Below, one piece after another: positions 38,469 to 61,786 of a stretch of 64,000 nt of DNA (positions within the stretch are counted from its first letter, which is position 1; the number at the start of each line of letters is the position of its first letter). Origin of the DNA: Octopus vulgaris (Eukaryota); contig OX597837.1 in assembly GCA_951406725.2 (NCBI GenBank), forward strand, positions 45,012,001-45,076,000, written 5' to 3'. A program made the position numbers and the translations under genes. Under the pieces are notes generated by a model. It ran no database searches. It was not told where the DNA came from and worked only from the letters and a program-made list of their open reading frames with translations.

Positions 38469-38860
38469 TACACATAAATGTACAGAGAGAGAGAGAGAAT
38501 GAAATGCAGTAAGAAAGTAGATTTCACCCATCCAAAACCAAAAGGATGCAAGATTAACTACAATTCTTTTGATAATCATACCACATCCCAGAACACCAAA
38601 ACTCTTTTTTTTTTTAAAGAAGATAAAAGGAAGAAATCCTCAATACGAAAGAATCAGATTAATCTCCGAGCAGCATATCAAGAACACCAAACATCGTTGC
38701 TATTTAGTATTAGAAGAATTACAAGAGATATTATTTTTCTCGTTCTTGTTCTTAGAGAAGGTTTCGGTATTTCGAAGAATTGCAACCGTGTTTTCATCTT
38801 TCATTTTGGTTTTAATTTCTCTTTATTTTTGTGCGATTTCTTTTTCTATTTCAGTATCAG

Positions 38861-39035
38861 ATGGATTACAAACCCAAAATACCCACCACTACAATAAAAT
38901 TTGTTCTTTTATGAACTATACAGGTTACGTAAATATACACTTCAGCGCGTAAATGCTCTGTTATAGTCTTATGAACACGTATATTTTCATGCAAAAATAT
39001 TGCTATGTGCATAGATACACACACACGTATGTATA

Positions 39036-39070
<35 letters not shown>

Positions 39071-40317: not shown

Positions 40318-40488
40318 TATGGATTACAAACCAAAAATACCCACCACTACAATAAAATTTGTTCTTTTATGAACTATACAGGTTACGTAAATATACACTT
40401 CAGCGCGTAAATACTCTGTTATAGTCTTATGAACACGTATATTTTCATGCAAAAATATAGCTATGTGCATAGATACACACACGTATGT
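38861..40488 (+). repeat. Local direct duplication of about 170 bp (38861-39032 and 40319-40488)
   Basis: ATGGATTACAAACC..ATACCCACCACTACAATAAAATTTG...GCTATGTGCATAGATACACAC occurs twice, 1458 bp apart, with about 3 substitutions. Confidence 0.9.
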
Positions 40489-40513
40489 GTACATGCATAT
40501 ATATATATATGTG

Positions 40514-43974: not shown

Positions 43975-44580
43975 GGGAAATGAGTAAAAAGTAGGCAACG
44001 TTTTGGAACATGAAATTCCTCCCAATTATATTTCATCAATGAGGAAATTTTATTCATCAAATTAAGTACCGTCACAATCAGTACATTTTTTACCAACGAG
44101 TTACAAGTTTGTTAATTCCGGTAAGATAAGAATTTGGGGTTCTTTGGACTGGACGCACTTTCAACATCGATTTGATCTTTAAACTCCTTCTCTCGCAGGA
44201 AACTCTCAAGGTTGCTAGAAAAAGTGGTTGTCGGTAGGCGAAAGGTGTGTGGAATAAGCTGGGTAGGGAAGAACTTCGTAACCAAGTTCTCTCAACTTCT
44301 GGAGCATCATTAGTGAAACGTGTGGTCGAGTATCGTCATGAAGAATGATTGGTCCTCTTCTGTTGACCATTGTGAGACAGAAGAGTAGCAGATTTTCGTT
44401 TATTTTGTCAATTACAGGGCAATATGTTTTTGCAGTAATGGTTTTTCCGAGTTTTAAGAAGTTATGGTGGATGAGTCCAGCAATACACCACTAAACAGTC
44501 ACCATAACCTTCTTTTTGAAGAATTCGGGTTTAGGGAAGTTTTTCGGTACTTCATTTTGGTCCAACCACTACGAATAACG

Positions 44581-44633
<53 letters not shown>

Positions 44634-44634
44634 A

Positions 44635-44689
<55 letters not shown>

Positions 44690-44697
44690 TATCATCA

Positions 44698-44748
<51 letters not shown>

Positions 44749-44756
44749 TATCATCA

Positions 44757-44811
<55 letters not shown>

Positions 44812-44865
44812 TACTATTATTATTATTATTATATTATCATCATCATCATTATTATTATTATTATT

Positions 44866-44902
<37 letters not shown>

Positions 44903-45565
44903 TTGTTGTTGTTGTTGTTGTTGTTAAAGGATCCATTTTCATCGCAAGTTACAATACGGTCGACAAATGGATCGGTGTGGTTACGGAAAAGAAGTGATGG
45001 GCAAATTTCATATCTGATTTTCATTCAAATCGTGTGTTACCCATTTGTCGAGGTTTTGGATCTTCTGGCCACACGCAAATGGATGCAGCCAGTTTTCCAG
45101 CTAACTTGAGGTTCTTTTGCCAGTACTCAAATGGTTTTACGTGGATCTTTCTCAATGACGGTCTTTAATTGACCGTCATTGATGACAGATGGGGGTCCGC
45201 TACGCTCACGATCTTTAAGGCTCAGGTCTCTACTGTGAAATCGTTTAAACCCTTTTCGAGCTGACCACCCACTGGTCATTTCCTCACCAAATGTTTCGTT
45301 GATATCGCGAGCAGTTTCAGCTGCTTTACGTCCCTTTTTTAAGTTAAATAGCAAAATTGCTCGAATATCGCGCTTTGAGAGTTTCATTTCAGATTATTGT
45401 AACAACGGTGAAAACAATATCAATGTATCGATGCCTTTGGGCAAATCTATGTCTTTGTTATCAGATGATTGCCCAAAAAGTATTTTTAAAATATTCAAAA
45501 CCCAGCAAAAATCCGGTACACGTTTTTCATGGTTCAAAACGCTGCTTACTTTTTACTCAACCTGA
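43975..45565 (-). mobile_element. Full-length defective mariner (DD34D) element interrupted by a ~345-bp microsatellite
   Basis: Fragments include the HTH region MKLSKRDIRAILLFNLKKGRKAAETARDINETFG, WVTHDL, RIVTCDE, HDDTRPH and YSTHLSPTDNHFF. The TIR TGAGTAAAAAGTARGCARCGTTTTG..CATGAAA lies at 43981-44015 and inverted at 45525-45559. Confidence 0.9.
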
Positions 45566-47178: not shown

Positions 47179-47215
47179 TATAAAATGCATTCTGTCTGGG
47201 AATTCTTCGCCAGTG
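47179..47215 (+). promoter_or_regulatory. Candidate TATA box and initiator of the W/Y/R-rich gene
   Basis: TATAAAA at 47179-47185 and an Inr-like CCAGT with A at 47212, 33 nt downstream of the TATA start. The ATG at 47277 has G at -3. The region is CpG-containing unique sequence next to microsatellites. Confidence 0.55.
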
Positions 47216-47276
47216 TCCACTTGCGACGTGTTTCGCAAGACACGCAGGATATCTGACGCGCACAACCATACTAGAC

Positions 47277-49379
47277 ATGTTGCTTTGCCGCGCATTCCTG
47301 ATATTTGGGCTGAGCTGCTTGCTCTCGTCTAAAACCAACGCGAAACTAGAAAGAACAATTTCCCCAGTCACCGAACATGCGGAAGAGATATTGCACGAGA
47401 TAGCAAGAAGTTCTAAATCTCCGTCTTCGCCGGATTTGGTTAGGAAAGACACAGGGACTTCGTTTACGACTGTTGTCCCTTCGAAGTCGGCAGTAACTCA
47501 AAACAATAGTAGTCACCTAAAGAAGGAAGCAAGAAATGATACTATAAAAACGAAGCAAGAAAACTCAACGAGGAAACCAGAGGCTTCGTCTAATATCATC
47601 GCCAAGCATCCTGCACCAAACTGGGTTACAACTAATTACTGGCCGAGGTACACCACCAACTACCCAAGATGGTGGACAACACAATACAGACCTTGGTACA
47701 CCACCAACTACCCAAGATGGAGGACAACTAAGTACTGGCCTTGGTACACCACCAACTACCCAAGATGGGGTACAACAAACTACTGGCCGTGGTACACTAC
47801 CAACTACCCAAGATGGGGTACTACTCCCAACTGGCCGTGGTACACCACAAGTAATCCTCAATGGTGGACAAATCTATGCAACCCGTGGTACACTACGAGT
47901 TACCCGAGATGGAGAACGAAGCATTACAGACCTTGGTATACCACAAGCTACCCAGGATGGAGGACAAATAGATACAGACCGTGGTATACTACAAGCTACC
48001 CAGGATGGAGGACAAATAGATACAGACCTTGGTATACCACAAGCTACCCAGGATGGAGGACAAATAGATACAGACCGTGGTATACTACAAGCTACCCAGG
48101 ATGGAGGACAAATAGATACAGGCCGTGGTATACTACAAGCTACCCAGGATGGAGGACAACTAGATACAGACCGTGGTATACTACAAGCTACCCAAGATGG
48201 AGGACAAATAGATACAGACCGTGGTATACTACAAGCTACCCAGGATGGAGGACAACTAGATACAGACCCTGGTATACTACAAGCTACCCAAGATGGAGGA
48301 CAAATAGATACAGACCCTGGTATACTACAAGCTACCCAAGATGGAGGACAACTAGATACAGACCTTGGTATACTACAAGCTACCCAGGATGGAGGACAAC
48401 TAGATACAGACCCTGGTATACTACCAGCTACCCAAGATGGAGGACAAATAGATACAGACCGTGGTATACTACAAGCTACCCAAGATGGAGGACAACTAGA
48501 TACAGACCCTGGTATACTACAAGCTACCCAAGATGGAGGACAACTAGATACAGACCCTGGTACACCACCCAGTACCCGAGGTGGTGGGCAACACCTTGCT
48601 ACAATCCATGGTACACCACCCAATACCCAAGATGGTGGACAACACAATACAGACCTTGGTACACCTCCCAGTACCCAAGATGGAGGACAACACAATATAG
48701 ACCTCGGTACACTACATGGCATCCAAGATGGTGGACAACACAATATAGACCTCGGTACACAACCTGGCACCCAAGATGGTGGACAACACAATATAGACCT
48801 CGGTACACTACCTGGCATCCAAGATGGTGGACAACGCAATATAGACCTCGGTACACAACCTGGCATCCAAGATGGTGGACAACACAATATAGACCTCGGT
48901 ACACAACCTGGCATCCAAGATGGTGGACAACACAATATAGACCTCGGTACACAACCTGGCATCCAAGATGGTGGACAACACAATATAGACCTCGGTACAC
49001 AACCTGGCATCCAAGATGGTGGACAACACAATATAGACCTCGGTACACAACCTGGCACCCAAGATGGTGGACAACACAATATAGACCTCGGTACACTACC
49101 TGGCATCCAAGATGGTGGACAACGCAATATAGACCTCGGTACACAACCTGGCATCCAAGATGGTGGACAACACAATATAGACCTCGGTACACAACCTGGC
49201 ATCCAAGATGGTGGACAACACAATATAGACCTCGGTACACTACCTGGCATCCAAGATGGTGGACAACACAATATAGACCTCGGTACACTACCTGGCATCC
49301 AAGATGGTGGACAACACAATATAGACCGTGGTTCACCACCCATAGACCAACACGTGATGAAGGAAGTATTATTGGTTGA
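47277..49379 (+). CDS. Uncharacterised secreted Trp/Tyr/Arg/Thr/Pro-rich tandem-repeat protein, 700 aa
   Basis: A 2.1-kb ORF with a signal-peptide-like N-terminus (MLLCRAFLIFGLSCLLSSKTNA), a ~95-aa S/T/K/E-rich region with N-x-S/T sequons, 8/16-aa repeats at residues 120-688 and a double stop TGATAA. Differences between repeat units fall mostly at synonymous third positions of this frame. Confidence 0.92.
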   Translation: MLLCRAFLIFGLSCLLSSKTNAKLERTISPVTEHAEEILHEIARSSKSPSSPDLVRKDTGTSFTTVVPSKSAVTQNNSSHLKKEARNDTIKTKQENSTRKPEASSNIIAKHPAPNWVTTNYWPRYTTNYPRWWTTQYRPWYTTNYPRWRTTKYWPWYTTNYPRWGTTNYWPWYTTNYPRWGTTPNWPWYTTSNPQWWTNLCNPWYTTSYPRWRTKHYRPWYTTSYPGWRTNRYRPWYTTSYPGWRTNRYRPWYTTSYPGWRTNRYRPWYTTSYPGWRTNRYRPWYTTSYPGWRTTRYRPWYTTSYPRWRTNRYRPWYTTSYPGWRTTRYRPWYTTSYPRWRTNRYRPWYTTSYPRWRTTRYRPWYTTSYPGWRTTRYRPWYTTSYPRWRTNRYRPWYTTSYPRWRTTRYRPWYTTSYPRWRTTRYRPWYTTQYPRWWATPCYNPWYTTQYPRWWTTQYRPWYTSQYPRWRTTQYRPRYTTWHPRWWTTQYRPRYTTWHPRWWTTQYRPRYTTWHPRWWTTQYRPRYTTWHPRWWTTQYRPRYTTWHPRWWTTQYRPRYTTWHPRWWTTQYRPRYTTWHPRWWTTQYRPRYTTWHPRWWTTQYRPRYTTWHPRWWTTQYRPRYTTWHPRWWTTQYRPRYTTWHPRWWTTQYRPRYTTWHPRWWTTQYRPRYTTWHPRWWTTQYRPWFTTHRPTRDEGSIIG
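47634..49340 (+). repeat. Coding minisatellite with a 48-bp unit (two diverged 24-bp halves)
   Basis: Block A (47634-47921) is diverged. Block B (47922-48545) is 13 x (R/H)YRPWYTTSYP(G/R)WRT(N/T). Block C (48693-49316) is 13 x QYRPRYTTWHPRWWTT. Confidence 0.95.
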
Positions 49380-49423
49380 TAAATTACTTTTGACTCATCA
49401 ATACCGATCTCTGTTCTTGGACG

Positions 49424-51832
49424 GTAAGTATATCTTTTATATTGAGAGATTTTATCCGTCATCTTCATCGTCACTATCATCATAATCATTATCATCATCA
49501 TTAACATCGTCATTATCCTCATCATCATCACAATCATTATCATCAGCAGTAGCAGCAGCACCACCACCACCAATAACATAACCGCCGCCACCACCACTAT
49601 TACCACTGCTGGTATTATTGTTGTTATTATTATTATTATTATTATTATTGTTGTTGTTGTTGTTGTTGTTGTTATTATCATTATTATTATTGAGTGAGAG
49701 AGCAGTGCATGCCATCAAAGTGGCACTGGGATAAAATATACGAAGCCCAGTATACCCATCATGACTACCCGTCTGATAAGGGTACACCAGGCACATGCCT
49801 CGCAACCATATGTGCGCGACATAGTGATCTCATATCAGGATAAACAGCACATGACCTTGCAGGTGGGGCCCAGTTAGAATTTTCTTCTGGTCGAGTAACC
49901 CATCCTGCTGAAAAGGTCCCTGAGTAAGGGTTGTTTAAGGATGTTGAACTGAACGAAACACCCATGTTTTCAGAAGTGAATTATTCAAACCCCAAAGTAT
50001 CCCTCTCAACACATGGCTATGATGCCGCCCCCCACTATTTCAGCTCGTTATCAGAGATGCACATTTCGTCAGCCACTAAGGGACATGCTCAACTGGTTAT
50101 GGGGCAGCATCATAGCCGTATGTTGAGAGGATTTCTTTGGAGTTTGAATAATTCACCTTTGGAAACATGGATCTTTTGTTCAACATCCTTAAACAACCTT
50201 ATTCAGGAGCCTTTTGAGCGGGATGGGCTACTCGACCAGAAGAAAATTTTAACTGGGCCCCACCTGCGAGGTCATTATTGTTGTTATTATACTGGTATGC
50301 TTTAAGTAGTTTGTGTTGGGAGTTATGGTTAACCTCTAGAAATCGACATTGCAGTAATACTGCAGGATATTGTGATTTATAAAAATCTCTTCAGGTATGG
50401 CAGAGCAGACAACTAATCCCGTCCTATACGGGTACCGAGTACTTGCTCAATGTCTAAACATTACTGACTTCTGGAATTTAATCGAACAAATTTTGTCACA
50501 TACAAGATGGAGGACCGTGAAGACCGTCCCGCGCCTTTTTTTTTTTGGTGGGGAACGGCAAGCAGTCTCGTATGTTTACCCTAGCGACAGCAGTTCCATG
50601 TTGGACGTTACTGAAAGGACTGAAATTACACTTTCCCCTTGGGTCAAAATCTCCTTTTTAATATTTGTTTCAGTCATTAGATTGCGACCATGGCGGGACA
50701 GCATCTTGGAGATGTGTCAACTAAAGACAAAGTGTGGGGGAAGGTGGAGTGAATCGACTCTCCCTTTTTTTTTAAATCTGGTACTTATCTTATCAGTATC
50801 GGTTTCCGAACCCCTAAATTACGGGCAGGTATAAAACACATCAACACCGGTTTAGAAGCAGTGGTGGGGGACAAATACAGACACACCGTCTACCAAATCC
50901 ACTTACAAAGCTTTGCTCATTTCGGGGCTTTAGTAGAAAACATTTGCCCAATGTGCCACGCAGTGGGACTGAACTCGGAACCATGTGCCTCTAGGTAGTC
51001 TTAGCCTTCTATTATAATACCACACAGCCACTCCTGCTCTTTGAACTCGGAACATAAAAATATTTAACTAAATAGCACAAGCATTTTGTCAATCGCTTTA
51101 ACGATTCTGCGAATACCCCACCTGAATATATTATTTTATTATATGATTTTATTATTAATATTATATGATTTCATTATTAATATAATATATTATATTATTC
51201 AGCGTTTTATTTGAACAAAAGTTAGCAACTTTCAAGGGAGATTACTCACTACTTTTCTATTACAAATCAGTCAGTGTTATTTCCCTTACATCTTCCAGCC
51301 TTTCGTCTAACGTAGATTTCGTCATAACAATGGCGAAGTTGGCAGAGTTGTTAGCGCGTCAGACAAACAGCTAAGCGAGATTTTTCTCCGACTATTTACG
51401 CTCTGAGTTCAAATGTCGCCGGAATCGACTTTTACCTTTCACCCTTTGAAGTCGATAAAATAAGGTACCAGTCAAGTTGTAGGATCGATGTAATCATATT
51501 AATCCACCTCCTAAATTTGTACGCATTCTACCGAATTTTGAAGCCATTATTTTTAGTCTTTTACTTGTTTCAGTCATTAGACTGCGTCCATGCTGGAGCA
51601 ACACCTTGAATAACTCCGGTTGCCTGAATCAATAAGAGAACCTTTTTTTTTTAAACTTAGTACTTATTTTATCGGTGTTCGTTGTCTTTGGCCAAACCGC
51701 TAAGTTACGGGGATGTAAACACACCAACAGTGGTTCTCGAGCTGTGGTGGCGGTGGACACAAACACAAAGACATACAAACACACACACACACACATTATT
51801 GAAAGAAAGAAAGAAAGAAAGAAAGAAAAAAA

Positions 51833-51863
<31 letters not shown>

Positions 51864-52258
51864 GATGAGCTGGCAAAATACCGTGTAGGAGAAAATTGTT
51901 TACGGGTGTTTCAGTGAGGTCAACTTCGTATTTTCATTGTTTTGAAGTTCATAAAATAGTACCAGTCATATACTGGTGTCGATATAATCAACATACTCCC
52001 ATCCCTTCCTCAAATTGCTGGCTTTGTGCCAAAATTCGAAACAGTTATTAAAAGAAGAAAGTTTGCAGGGAAATATCTTGAACGGAATTCAAACCCACAC
52101 CGCAGTCATGGTTACCTCTTGGCAGTTTACCATTCATTTCACAGCACTCATAACATCTAAATAACCCGTAAAGATATTCCGTCAAAATTTAACATACATC
52201 AATATGCTAATTTTTCTATATTTTCTGTATTTCTAGACTAATTTTCTTTCTATTTCAG
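49424..52258 (+). other. Probable 3'-UTR intron of the W/Y/R-rich gene
   Basis: Donor ACG|GTAAGT lies 44 nt after the stop. The acceptor GACTAATTTTCTTTCTATTTCAG ends at 52258 and has a CTAAT branch-point-like motif. The intervening sequence is mostly repeats. Confidence 0.65.
49692..50275. mobile_element. Family E repeat followed by an inverted partial copy
   Basis: 49692-50100 matches 24585-24985. 50101-50275 is a diverged reverse complement of 49851-50031. Confidence 0.85.
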
Positions 52259-52375
52259 ATTGAAATTGGCAGAGTTTCAGAGGAAGGAACGTACATGAAG
52301 ACATTTCTTCCGTATATTATATTATTGCAAAATCCAGAGTAATTCATGTAATAAAATATATCGATTATTGCTCCA
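52259..52375 (+). other. Probable non-coding terminal exon with poly(A) signal
   Basis: Unique sequence follows the acceptor, with AATAAA at 52350-52355 and pyrimidine-rich sequence downstream. Confidence 0.6.
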
Positions 52376-52835
52376 CAAGTCTTCTGGAATATTATTTCTC
52401 CTTCTTTAACTTAAAAACTCAGTATATTATTGGATATATTATTGTAAACGATATTCTGTTACACACATACATACATACATACACAAACACATACATACTT
52501 ACATACATACATAATACATAATATATACATGCATGCCTGTATGAGAGAGTGTGTGTGTGCATGCAAACACGTATGTATGTATGTATGCATGTATTTATGT
52601 ATGTATGCATGTATGTATGCACGTATGTATGCATGTATGTATGTATGTATGTATGTGTGTATGTATGTATGTATGTATGTATGTATTTATGTATGTATGT
52701 ATGTATGTATGTATGTATTTATGTATGTATGTATGTATGTATGCATGTATATATGTATATATGTATGTATGTATGTATATATGTATGTATGTATGTATCT
52801 ATGTATGTATGCATGTATATATGTATGTATGTATG

Positions 52836-60892: not shown

Positions 60893-61786
60893 CGAGAGGG
60901 TACCCAAAAAGAAACCAGAATTTTGCAATATTATTTTATTCACTTAGTTTTACACATTTACACTTTTATCGCCTTCAGAGTATTCTCCATTTGAAGCAAT
61001 GCATCGGTCCAGACGCGTTTTCCACTGTATGAAGCAGTTCTGGAACTTTTGCGAAATGATGTCTTTTAACGCCTCCGTAGTGTTTTTATTTTCTTCACCT
61101 CTTCCACGCCAGCATTTGTTACCAGTGATAACCTTTGAAAAAAGGTCCGAATCAACTTCCAACTGTTCTTTCAGTTCACGACACACATCCAGTTGTGACT
61201 GCTTTTGATCTTCCGTGAGCAAGTGAGGCACAACATTTTGTTGCAACTCTTTTCATTCGCAAACCTTCGCTCAAAAATTCGTTTGTCAGGAGCTCCAGGA
61301 CGATACTAGTTATATTAACAAGTCCGTTAATTTCTCAGAGACAGTCCTTCAAGATCAGTTCATGAATTTTTATGATCTTTTCATTAGTTCGGGATGTTGA
61401 TGGTTGCTCTGAATGAGATTGGTCTTCAAGCAACAAGTGACCATTCCTAAAGCATGGAAAACACTTGTAAACTTGTGTTTTACTCATGGCATCGCCCTTG
61501 TAAGCTGTTTGAAGCATGACAACTGTTTTGATTTCTGTTTTCTCTTGCAGAAAACAGAATTTCACAGAAGCATGATGCTCTTTCGTTTCAGACATCGCAA
61601 AAATCGACAAACAGAGAAGCACTGTAACACAAAAACGCACCACGTGGCACTATGACCCCAATGGACAACACCGGTCCACATACTGATGCCTGAGGGTCGC
61701 ATCAAGTGGCTTCTAGCGACGGAAGCCTGAACTACAAGAGGCTTGTCCCACAAATAACGTTTCCAGTTACTTTTGGGTACCTCTCG
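60893..61786 (-). mobile_element. Internally deleted mariner element with TIRs
   Basis: Encodes the HTH region MSETKEHHASVKFCFLQEK..SKTQVYKCF, then VPHLLTEDQKQ..SKVITGNKCW fused to the C-terminal FQNCFIQWKTRLDRCIASNGEYSEGD. Termini are CGAGAGG(G)TACCCAAAA in inverted orientation. Confidence 0.88.

Follow-up and report, generated by a model that had tools for sequence, protein, structure and literature searches.

A single-copy Octopus vulgaris gene for a predicted secreted Trp/Tyr-rich repeat protein, and its chitin deacetylase neighbour

The window analysed here comprises 64,000 nucleotides of Octopus vulgaris DNA (assembly GCA_951406725.2, contig OX597837.1, forward-strand positions 45,012,001 to 45,076,000) and contains a gene for a 700-residue protein that consists largely of octapeptides rich in tryptophan and tyrosine. 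The transcript of this gene is spliced and polyadenylated, its repeat peptide is under purifying selection, and there is next to no doubt that the gene is real. Its product adds a new sequence type to the known class of secreted block-repeat material proteins and by analogy would work most like the mussel foot protein Mfp-1 or the squid beak proteins. The role that we prefer, tentatively, is that of a matrix protein in a chitin-containing part of the animal. Positions are those of the window unless a contig is named.

Transcript, repeat layout and selection

The complete coding sequence (47277..49379, + strand; 700 codons and a TGA) lies wholly within exon 1. A TATA box (TATAAAA, 47179..47185, + strand) stands about 33 bases 5′ of an initiator-like CCAGT (47210–47214), and transcription is inferred to start near 47212; between the TATA region and the start of the open reading frame (ORF) no ATG occurs (47190–47276). 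An intron in the 3′ untranslated region was predicted first, from GTAAGT at 49424 and from an acceptor and AATAAA near 52259–52355. Four public run assemblies (X1, X9, X12 and X16) were aligned to 49300–52440, the span from the array end to the last exon, with the repeat and the 5′ part lying outside it. The sequence-only reading in which the protein was proposed, made by a model from the letters, had staked the gene on the existence of transcripts, and spliced, polyadenylated contigs were found in all three transcriptome-sized runs (X1, X9 and X12; organism labels A, B and C). In these the 2,835-base intron (49424..52258, + strand, GTAAGT ... TTTCAG) is removed at a common joint, which was absent from X16, the sole genome-sized run aligned. 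The last exon (52259..52373, + strand) is non-coding and carries AATAAA at 52350–52355 and a poly(A) site near 52370–52373, where 24 non-genomic A's follow 52373 in X9, the X1 contig departs from the genome at 52369, and the genomic DNA is not A-rich. The GT..AG intron ends and the poly(A) tail place the transcript on the + strand. The exon junction falls 44 bases 3′ of the stop codon, a distance within the range that escapes nonsense-mediated decay.

The spliced contigs had depths of 686, 374 and 392, compared with 2–6 for unique intron contigs of the same runs; since depth is a poor gauge of expression, transcript abundance is read only relative to the gene's own intron. Four exon-2 substitutions are common to X12 and X16, and two X16 intron pieces differ from the window at 28 of 479 and 23 of 476 bases; the junction is therefore common to two or more lineages that are about 5 % apart. 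X16, as aligned on 50985–52440, bears the same organism code as X1, although it is about 5 % off the window in unique intron sequence, where X1 is identical; this common label probably covers two lineages. The run search listed 24 rows, 20 of which (8 studies, 6 organism labels) carry part of the stretch; four listed organism-A runs held almost none of it and were not used for tissue specificity. The C-terminal tail is covered by the spliced contigs of X1 and X9, and a loose end of the X1 contig reads N-H-P-R-W, a unit variant absent from the window, which suggests allelic variation.

Every residue count of the sequence-only reading was confirmed on the translated ORF, which contains 145 Thr, 108 Arg, 92 Trp, 90 Tyr and 81 Pro, and no Asp or Glu between residues 103 and 693 (the only acidic residues past residue 102 being D694 and E695). 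The computed isoelectric point (pI) is 11.0, the mass 91 kDa and the absorbance at 280 nm about 7.2 per mg/ml; Lys (1.9 %), Gly (1.9 %), Phe (0.6 %) and His (2.7 %) are scarce and there is one Met. Residues 1–22 (47277..47342, + strand) form a predicted signal peptide, recognized by eye from hydropathy, the (−3,−1) pattern, a basic n-region, hydrophobic residues 6–16 and T-N-A preceding residue 23. The polar leader that follows (91 residues, 23–113; 47343..47615, + strand) has no Trp or Tyr, 15 Lys/Arg, 11 Asp/Glu, 24 Ser/Thr and four N-x-S/T sequons.

The repeats contain 16 % Trp and 16 % Tyr (32 % together), 18 % Lys plus Arg, 26 % Thr plus Ser, 13 % Pro and no Asp or Glu. Thirty-six anchors of the form P[WR][YF]T are spaced 16 residues apart, with one gap of 17, which gives about 71–72 octapeptides and agrees with the earlier estimate of about 71. 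The octapeptide profile is (Y/H)-(P/R)-(P/R)-(W/R)-x-T-T-x. All 68 octapeptides that were scored have Thr at position 6, and two octapeptides make up each of the 36 16-residue units, so that the array has a period of 48 bp. All blocks lie on the + strand. Block A (residues 114–218; 47616..47930) holds the most diverged units, such as PWYTTNYPRWGTTNYW. Block B (residues 219–426; 47931..48554) has 13 units of PWYTTSYP(R/G)WRT(N/T)RYR and 22 % Lys plus Arg. The junction units (residues 427–475; 48555..48701) include the sole 17-residue unit. Block C (residues 476–683; 48702..49325) has 13 identical PRYTTWHPRWWTTQYR units and 19 % Trp, and is followed by a unique C-terminal tail (residues 684–700) with the stop codon (49326..49379). 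The mature protein has two Cys, both in degenerate units at block boundaries (Cys201, near the end of block A, and Cys441, in the junction units). Dibasic pairs occur only in the leader, at 56, 82 and 99. The motifs RPWY, PRWW and YP were counted 16, 16 and 21 times, respectively. In the DNA of block C the variants follow the order a,b,c,d,d,d,d,b,c,d,d,e,e, a pattern of duplication at a higher level, that of six units (288 bp).

That a 48-bp array has an open frame is unremarkable in itself, as 97.6 % of 20,000 shuffled 48-bp units leave a frame open, and here two further frames are open across all or most of the array. Substitutions were therefore counted on a minimum spanning tree of the 22 distinct units among 34, the 17-residue unit and the last partial unit being excluded. 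In the ORF frame 41 changes were synonymous and 34 non-synonymous, with 20 % of sites being synonymous (ratio of non-synonymous to synonymous changes per site, pN/pS, 0.21; P=4.5e-11), whereas the other two open frames showed no synonymous excess (P=0.43 and P=0.12). An antisense frame with many stops gave P=0.0013, as is expected because its third positions are common to the ORF frame. Block B alone had six synonymous and three non-synonymous changes (P=0.003), and block C four and none (P=0.002), at four third-codon positions (three Thr and one His). The units of block C had been described as identical peptides that differ at synonymous Thr and His positions, with selection on the peptide suggested, and this is supported. 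The frame-specific synonymous excess, together with the spliced and polyadenylated transcript, exceeds what chance would give, and the repeat peptide is under purifying selection.

Searches for relatives and structure models

The sequence-only reading had recognized no family for the protein, and neither a homologue nor a match to a characterized protein was found in the protein, family, structure and literature searches that were run. The whole protein gave no relative among 6,508 candidates of near length from 5.8 billion proteins, and residues 1–260 gave none among 1,435 candidates of shorter length from the same collection, longer ones being outside that search; the exact sequence was absent from the protein database. 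HMMER with residues 1–258 against 1.84 billion representatives returned 14 matches (16–44 % identity), all starting at or after residue 108, and the 11 that were inspected were rejected as homologues, being unrelated periodic or low-complexity sequences. The best scores in the ESM Atlas (0.80 and 0.78) were under the lead level, and there was no significant match in Pfam, NCBIfam or the PDB sequences, the Pfam Mucin family at E=0.045 being below the cut-off. In a control, proteins of O. bimaculoides, Argonauta and cuttlefish were present in the database, and no named octopus orthologue of the adjacent deacetylase (see below) appeared, for which reason the absence of the repeat protein is weak evidence that it has escaped annotation. 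The gene illustrates that a real coding exon can resemble a plain minisatellite and be missing from protein databases.

DNA and protein searches of the genome (2.8 Gb in 227 contigs) with the leader and the repeats indicated a single-copy gene. Weak matches on C6, C19, C21, C24:35.6 Mb, C28 and C30 were rejected as paralogues, as they were unrelated minisatellites or low-complexity frames, that on C6 sitting within a dispersed repeat. No second long coding-type tandem array of similar kind was found in 464 kb of surrounding sequence. No description of the protein was found in the literature, with most subscription journals and bioRxiv supplements beyond the reach of the search, and the repeat peptides used as search terms returned irrelevant papers only. 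They were also absent from ink and salivary-gland proteome supplements (PMC10142993, PMC7693380), an uninformative result because a control term was absent as well. In the part of PMC12961712 that was searched, neither chitin nor cuticle is mentioned.

Given an alignment of its own shifted repeats, a 128-residue segment was modelled by AlphaFold2 as a regular two-strand 16-residue coil (predicted local distance difference test, pLDDT, 58.6; predicted template modelling score, pTM, 0.42); such an alignment favours periodic folds, and the model has no matched control. Block C without an alignment gave one short stacked strand per 16-residue unit (pLDDT 47.5). The coil matches many β-helices equally well (best Z 12.5, root-mean-square deviation 1.9, 128 aligned residues, 3 % identity), and Foldseek with the coil model found none at E<=0.001. 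At most, and with low confidence, the models hint at a 16-residue β-solenoid that would align Trp, Tyr, Thr and Arg in rows.

The adjacent chitin deacetylase and a role in chitin-containing parts

The surroundings were surveyed for 200 kb on each side by running Pfam on 121 long low-repeat ORFs (464 kb) and on 150 of 333 shorter ones (the nearest 204 kb), a scan that small exons of other genes may have escaped. The only non-transposon matches above cut-off were to polysaccharide deacetylase (E=6.5e-5) and CBM14 (E=2.5e-8). They belong to two coding exons of a CBM14-chitin deacetylase on the − strand (C24:45,100,367-45,101,047, L020:4367-5047, and 45,087,801-45,088,799, L019:1801-2799) that join in phase. 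The deacetylase exon lies 23.4 kb and the CBM14 exon 36.4 kb past the poly(A) site of the repeat gene, on the opposite strand, such that the two genes converge. The adjacent gene is 67–72 % identical to gastropod CBM14-chitin deacetylases and shows the deacetylase motifs TFDD, HTVSH and RVPF. The genome has no fewer than 130 CBM14 matches (50 clusters) and 18 deacetylase matches (eight clusters). Equal proximity to a deacetylase-like exon holds for 0.02 % of the genome and to a CBM14 exon for 0.17 %, both being lower bounds; doubling to allow for candidates without a score gives up to about 0.4 %. Before this neighbour was found, three ideas had been recorded, and chitin was among them. Among the roles that the sequence-only reading had listed, the adjacent deacetylase tilts the choice towards a chitin-containing structure and away from egg cement or mucus.

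The linker of the deacetylase is unalignable between the octopus genome and snails except for a W-W-[RK]-P island, present in six of six aligned sequences and absent from 11 more distant deacetylases with long N-termini. The island in the octopus linker, TTTRRPWWKP, is similar to TTRYRPWY of the repeat. Set against this, 6 % of linker shuffles match the repeat equally well, and BLASTP of the leader and block A against the deacetylase exon gave E=0.035, without composition correction, so that shared ancestry or a shared ligand of linker and repeat is a lead rather than a result. The neighbour and the likeness of the motif favour, and do not show, a role in a chitin matrix.

Our preferred reading, held at somewhat less than even odds, is that the repeat protein is a structural matrix protein, predicted to be secreted, of a chitin-containing octopus part such as the beak, the radula, the gut or sucker cuticle, or the hatchling bristles. 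On secretion the signal peptide would be cleaved, and the polar, partly acidic and probably glycosylated leader may maintain solubility in the secretory path. After release, a change in salt or pH could cause coacervation through Arg-Trp/Tyr and aromatic-aromatic contacts; Trp and Tyr rings would stack on chitin, and the material might later harden by dehydration or Tyr oxidation. Chitin is contained in Kolliker organs. These bristle-like organs are borne by late octopus embryos (PMC6899024), the octopus oesophagus, crop and stomach are lined by cuticle (PMC9501996), and among the radula-specific genes of a snail many are novel or chitin-binding (PMC5995198). Mfp-1 (about 110 kDa, pI 10.5), which the octopus protein matches in architecture, size and pI, self-coacervates in its polycationic recombinant form at >0.7 M NaCl, the salt level of seawater, by cation-π contacts (PMC9999432). 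In chiton RTMP1, colloidal chitin is bound by a region that contains Trp (10.1101/2024.11.02.621658), and in the squid beak model coacervates infiltrate chitin (PMC11931252). Neither suckerins nor histidine-rich beak proteins turned up in O. bimaculoides (PMC9068888), from which it would follow that octopus chitin composites need other matrix proteins.

The motifs that define CBM14 proteins, RTMP1, Mfp-1, beak proteins, suckerins and reflectins are all absent from the repeat protein. The squid beak proteins HBP-1 to -3 also have a non-repetitive N-terminus followed by aromatic-bearing repeats, and their proposed chitin-infiltrating coacervate is the model for the explanation preferred here (PMC11931252). 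They are, however, proteins of 15–18 kDa with a pI of about 6, more than 50 % Gly/Ala/His and GHGXY or GFA repeats, whereas in the octopus protein (91 kDa, pI 11) Gly, Ala and His make up 42 of 700 residues (6 %) and GHG and GFA do not occur. Suckerins resemble it as block copolymers that serve as cephalopod materials and have short β-forming segments bounded by Pro (PMC11931252), and differ in their modules, the octopus protein having no GGY or GYG, no AATAVS- or HTTHH-like modules and little Gly. RTMP1 is likewise a lineage-specific secreted mollusc matrix protein with a chitin-binding, Trp-containing part (PMC6351634; 10.1101/2024.11.02.621658), but it is Gly/Ser-rich, binds iron and has a single WF-rich and a single His-rich region (PMC6351634), whereas the octopus protein carries Trp across about 70 repeats and is poor in Gly, Phe and His. 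CBM14 (peritrophin-A) is a six-Cys domain, in contrast to the two Cys of the mature octopus protein, and gave no Pfam match above cut-off. In a 2025 review, reflectins, beak proteins and suckerins are named as the three cephalopod material-protein families, the beak proteins having been explored only in the Humboldt squid (PMC11931252). Two of the three did not turn up in O. bimaculoides (PMC9068888), and for the stiffening of chitin structures in octopus the repeat gene is a concrete and abundantly spliced candidate.

Several points weigh against the chitin-matrix reading. No known chitin-binding domain was found in the repeat protein by Pfam, both structure models are of low confidence (pLDDT 58.6 and 47.5), and the shuffling and BLASTP figures for the linker are as given above. 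Adjacent animal genes are mostly unrelated in function, and the proximity figure overstates the case because other kinds of neighbour would also have counted as support. If the Thr-Thr pairs were O-glycosylated, the material could be mucin-like and not hard.

A bolder form of the same idea, which we consider improbable, is that the protein is the octopus counterpart of the squid beak proteins: a young gene would have multiplied a deacetylase-type Trp-Trp-Arg-Pro motif to about 70 copies in register, which would harden chitin as an aromatic β-solenoid or as a coacervate. If true, cephalopods would have invented a hard-tissue chemistry independently for a third time, here with Trp/Arg instead of His/Gly, the protein would be among the most Trp-rich natural structural proteins, and the adjacent deacetylase would have kept the source motif over hundreds of millions of years.

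Alternative roles and further loci

The strongest alternative, although unlikely, is a secreted glue, cement, coat or mucus unrelated to chitin (egg stalk cement, spermatophore wall or skin secretion), acting by cation-π coacervation and cured by Tyr oxidation as in mussel foot proteins. The evidence from composition and architecture applies to it equally. In size, pI and Y-P/T-Y content the octopus protein is nearest to Mfp-1; both are large polycationic proteins of short tandem repeats of Pro, Tyr, Thr and cationic residues (about 110 kDa and pI 10.5, compared with 91 kDa and pI 11, the secretion of the octopus protein being predicted by eye). Tyrosinase-family genes are present in the genome (59 matches, many of them probably haemocyanin units), none of them on the contig of the repeat gene. 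Against this alternative, the adjacent chitin deacetylase is left unexplained, the AKPSYPPTYK-like motif is absent (no match to [AY]KP.YP) and Lys makes up only 1.9 %. No sequence similarity to Mfp-1 was found, and the octopus protein differs from it in having Arg for Lys, 16 % Trp in the repeats, a period of 8/16 and three blocks. Among other foot proteins, Mfp-3S and Perna Pvfp-1 do contain Trp, which in Pvfp-1 is C-mannosylated at W-x-x-W/C sites; by this consensus the octopus protein has no such site (0 W..W and 0 W..C).

A defence protein held in granules of immune-type or barrier cells, and acting as a Trp/Arg/Pro-rich antimicrobial either whole or proteolysed, is less probable. Short Trp/Arg/Pro peptides such as indolicidin are antimicrobial. 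However, in multi-peptide antimicrobial precursors the units are split by dibasic or acidic processing spacers, and the octopus repeats have neither dibasic or furin-type sites nor acidic spacers. Secreted repeat proteins of immune-type cells are known in a sponge (GranRep) and in the tunicate Ciona (YYD), and these share with the octopus protein a signal peptide, tandem repeats and their omission from reference annotation (PMC11703226). They have another composition, were found by their high sequence diversity and form small families with diverse repeats, whereas the octopus gene is single-copy, with homogenized blocks under purifying selection.

Less probable again is an optical role, as a filler of very high refractive index or as a UV absorber in skin, eye or egg coverings. 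The computed refractive index increment (dn/dc, with assumed per-residue values) is 0.2125 over the whole mature protein and 0.217 over its repeats, compared with a mean of 0.196 and a maximum of 0.203 in 97 other proteins, although a high index follows from the composition regardless of function. Reflectins act inside cells, whereas the octopus protein has a predicted signal peptide. As in this protein, a high computed increment goes in reflectins with cephalopod restriction and richness in Arg, Tyr and other polarisable residues, and it is from the polarisable residues that the reflectin index stems (PMC11931252). The reflectin motif, MDX5(MDX5)nMDX3-4 (PMC11931252), is absent, as is a Met-rich composition (no match to [MF]D.{5}MD, a single Met, repeats free of Asp); the sequence-only reading had already noted that the protein lacks reflectin, suckerin and beak-protein motifs, and the motif counts bear it out for all three. 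The strict 8/16 register would also suggest a geometric role. Finally, a transcribed minisatellite or non-coding RNA with an accidental open frame, or coding in another frame, is very improbable despite the frequency of open frames in such arrays and the absence of the protein from the databases searched, as three tests (all units, block B and block C) gave a synonymous excess that the two other open frames do not show, a non-repetitive frame of 119 codons with a signal-like beginning starts at the first ATG past the TATA box, and the transcript strand is +.

No residue is rarer or more costly than tryptophan. As a natural design for coacervates under water, for binding chitin or for films of high index, a selected, acid-free repeat with 16 % Trp and 18 % cationic residues is unusual.

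No expanded W/Y/T repeat was seen among 20 other CBM14/deacetylase loci. One CBM14 protein (C2:45,954,700-45,957,800, L063) has a Thr/Lys/Ser-rich tail with two WW pairs (TKWWPRKITKWW). At C4:48.0-48.3 Mb there are at least eight deacetylase-like exons, 41–44 % identical to the neighbour of the repeat gene and some of them beside CBM14 exons; six of these exons list a stop inside the matched stretch. At C1:155,214,200-155,219,600 (L065), CBM14 domains are fused to long Gly-rich repeats with GGW/GGY units; the product has the look of a structural protein that binds chitin, and it may be a further component of the octopus cuticle or beak.

Between the repeat gene and the deacetylase, L018:4551-7422 contains two near-identical opposed reverse-transcriptase/endonuclease-like copies without a Pfam match, presumably of a Penelope-like element by their features. 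An exon at L079:2691-3383 (− strand) belongs to a gene for a small mucin-like membrane protein, which has PGNHTTPT repeats and a transmembrane stretch and carries the motif DYEQL at its C-terminus. Within the window, a unique-looking stretch of about 170 bases occurs twice, by eye, 1.5 kb apart (38852-39060 and 40319-40490), and decayed mariner/Mos1-type transposase fragments lie at 44093-45400 and 60950-61650.

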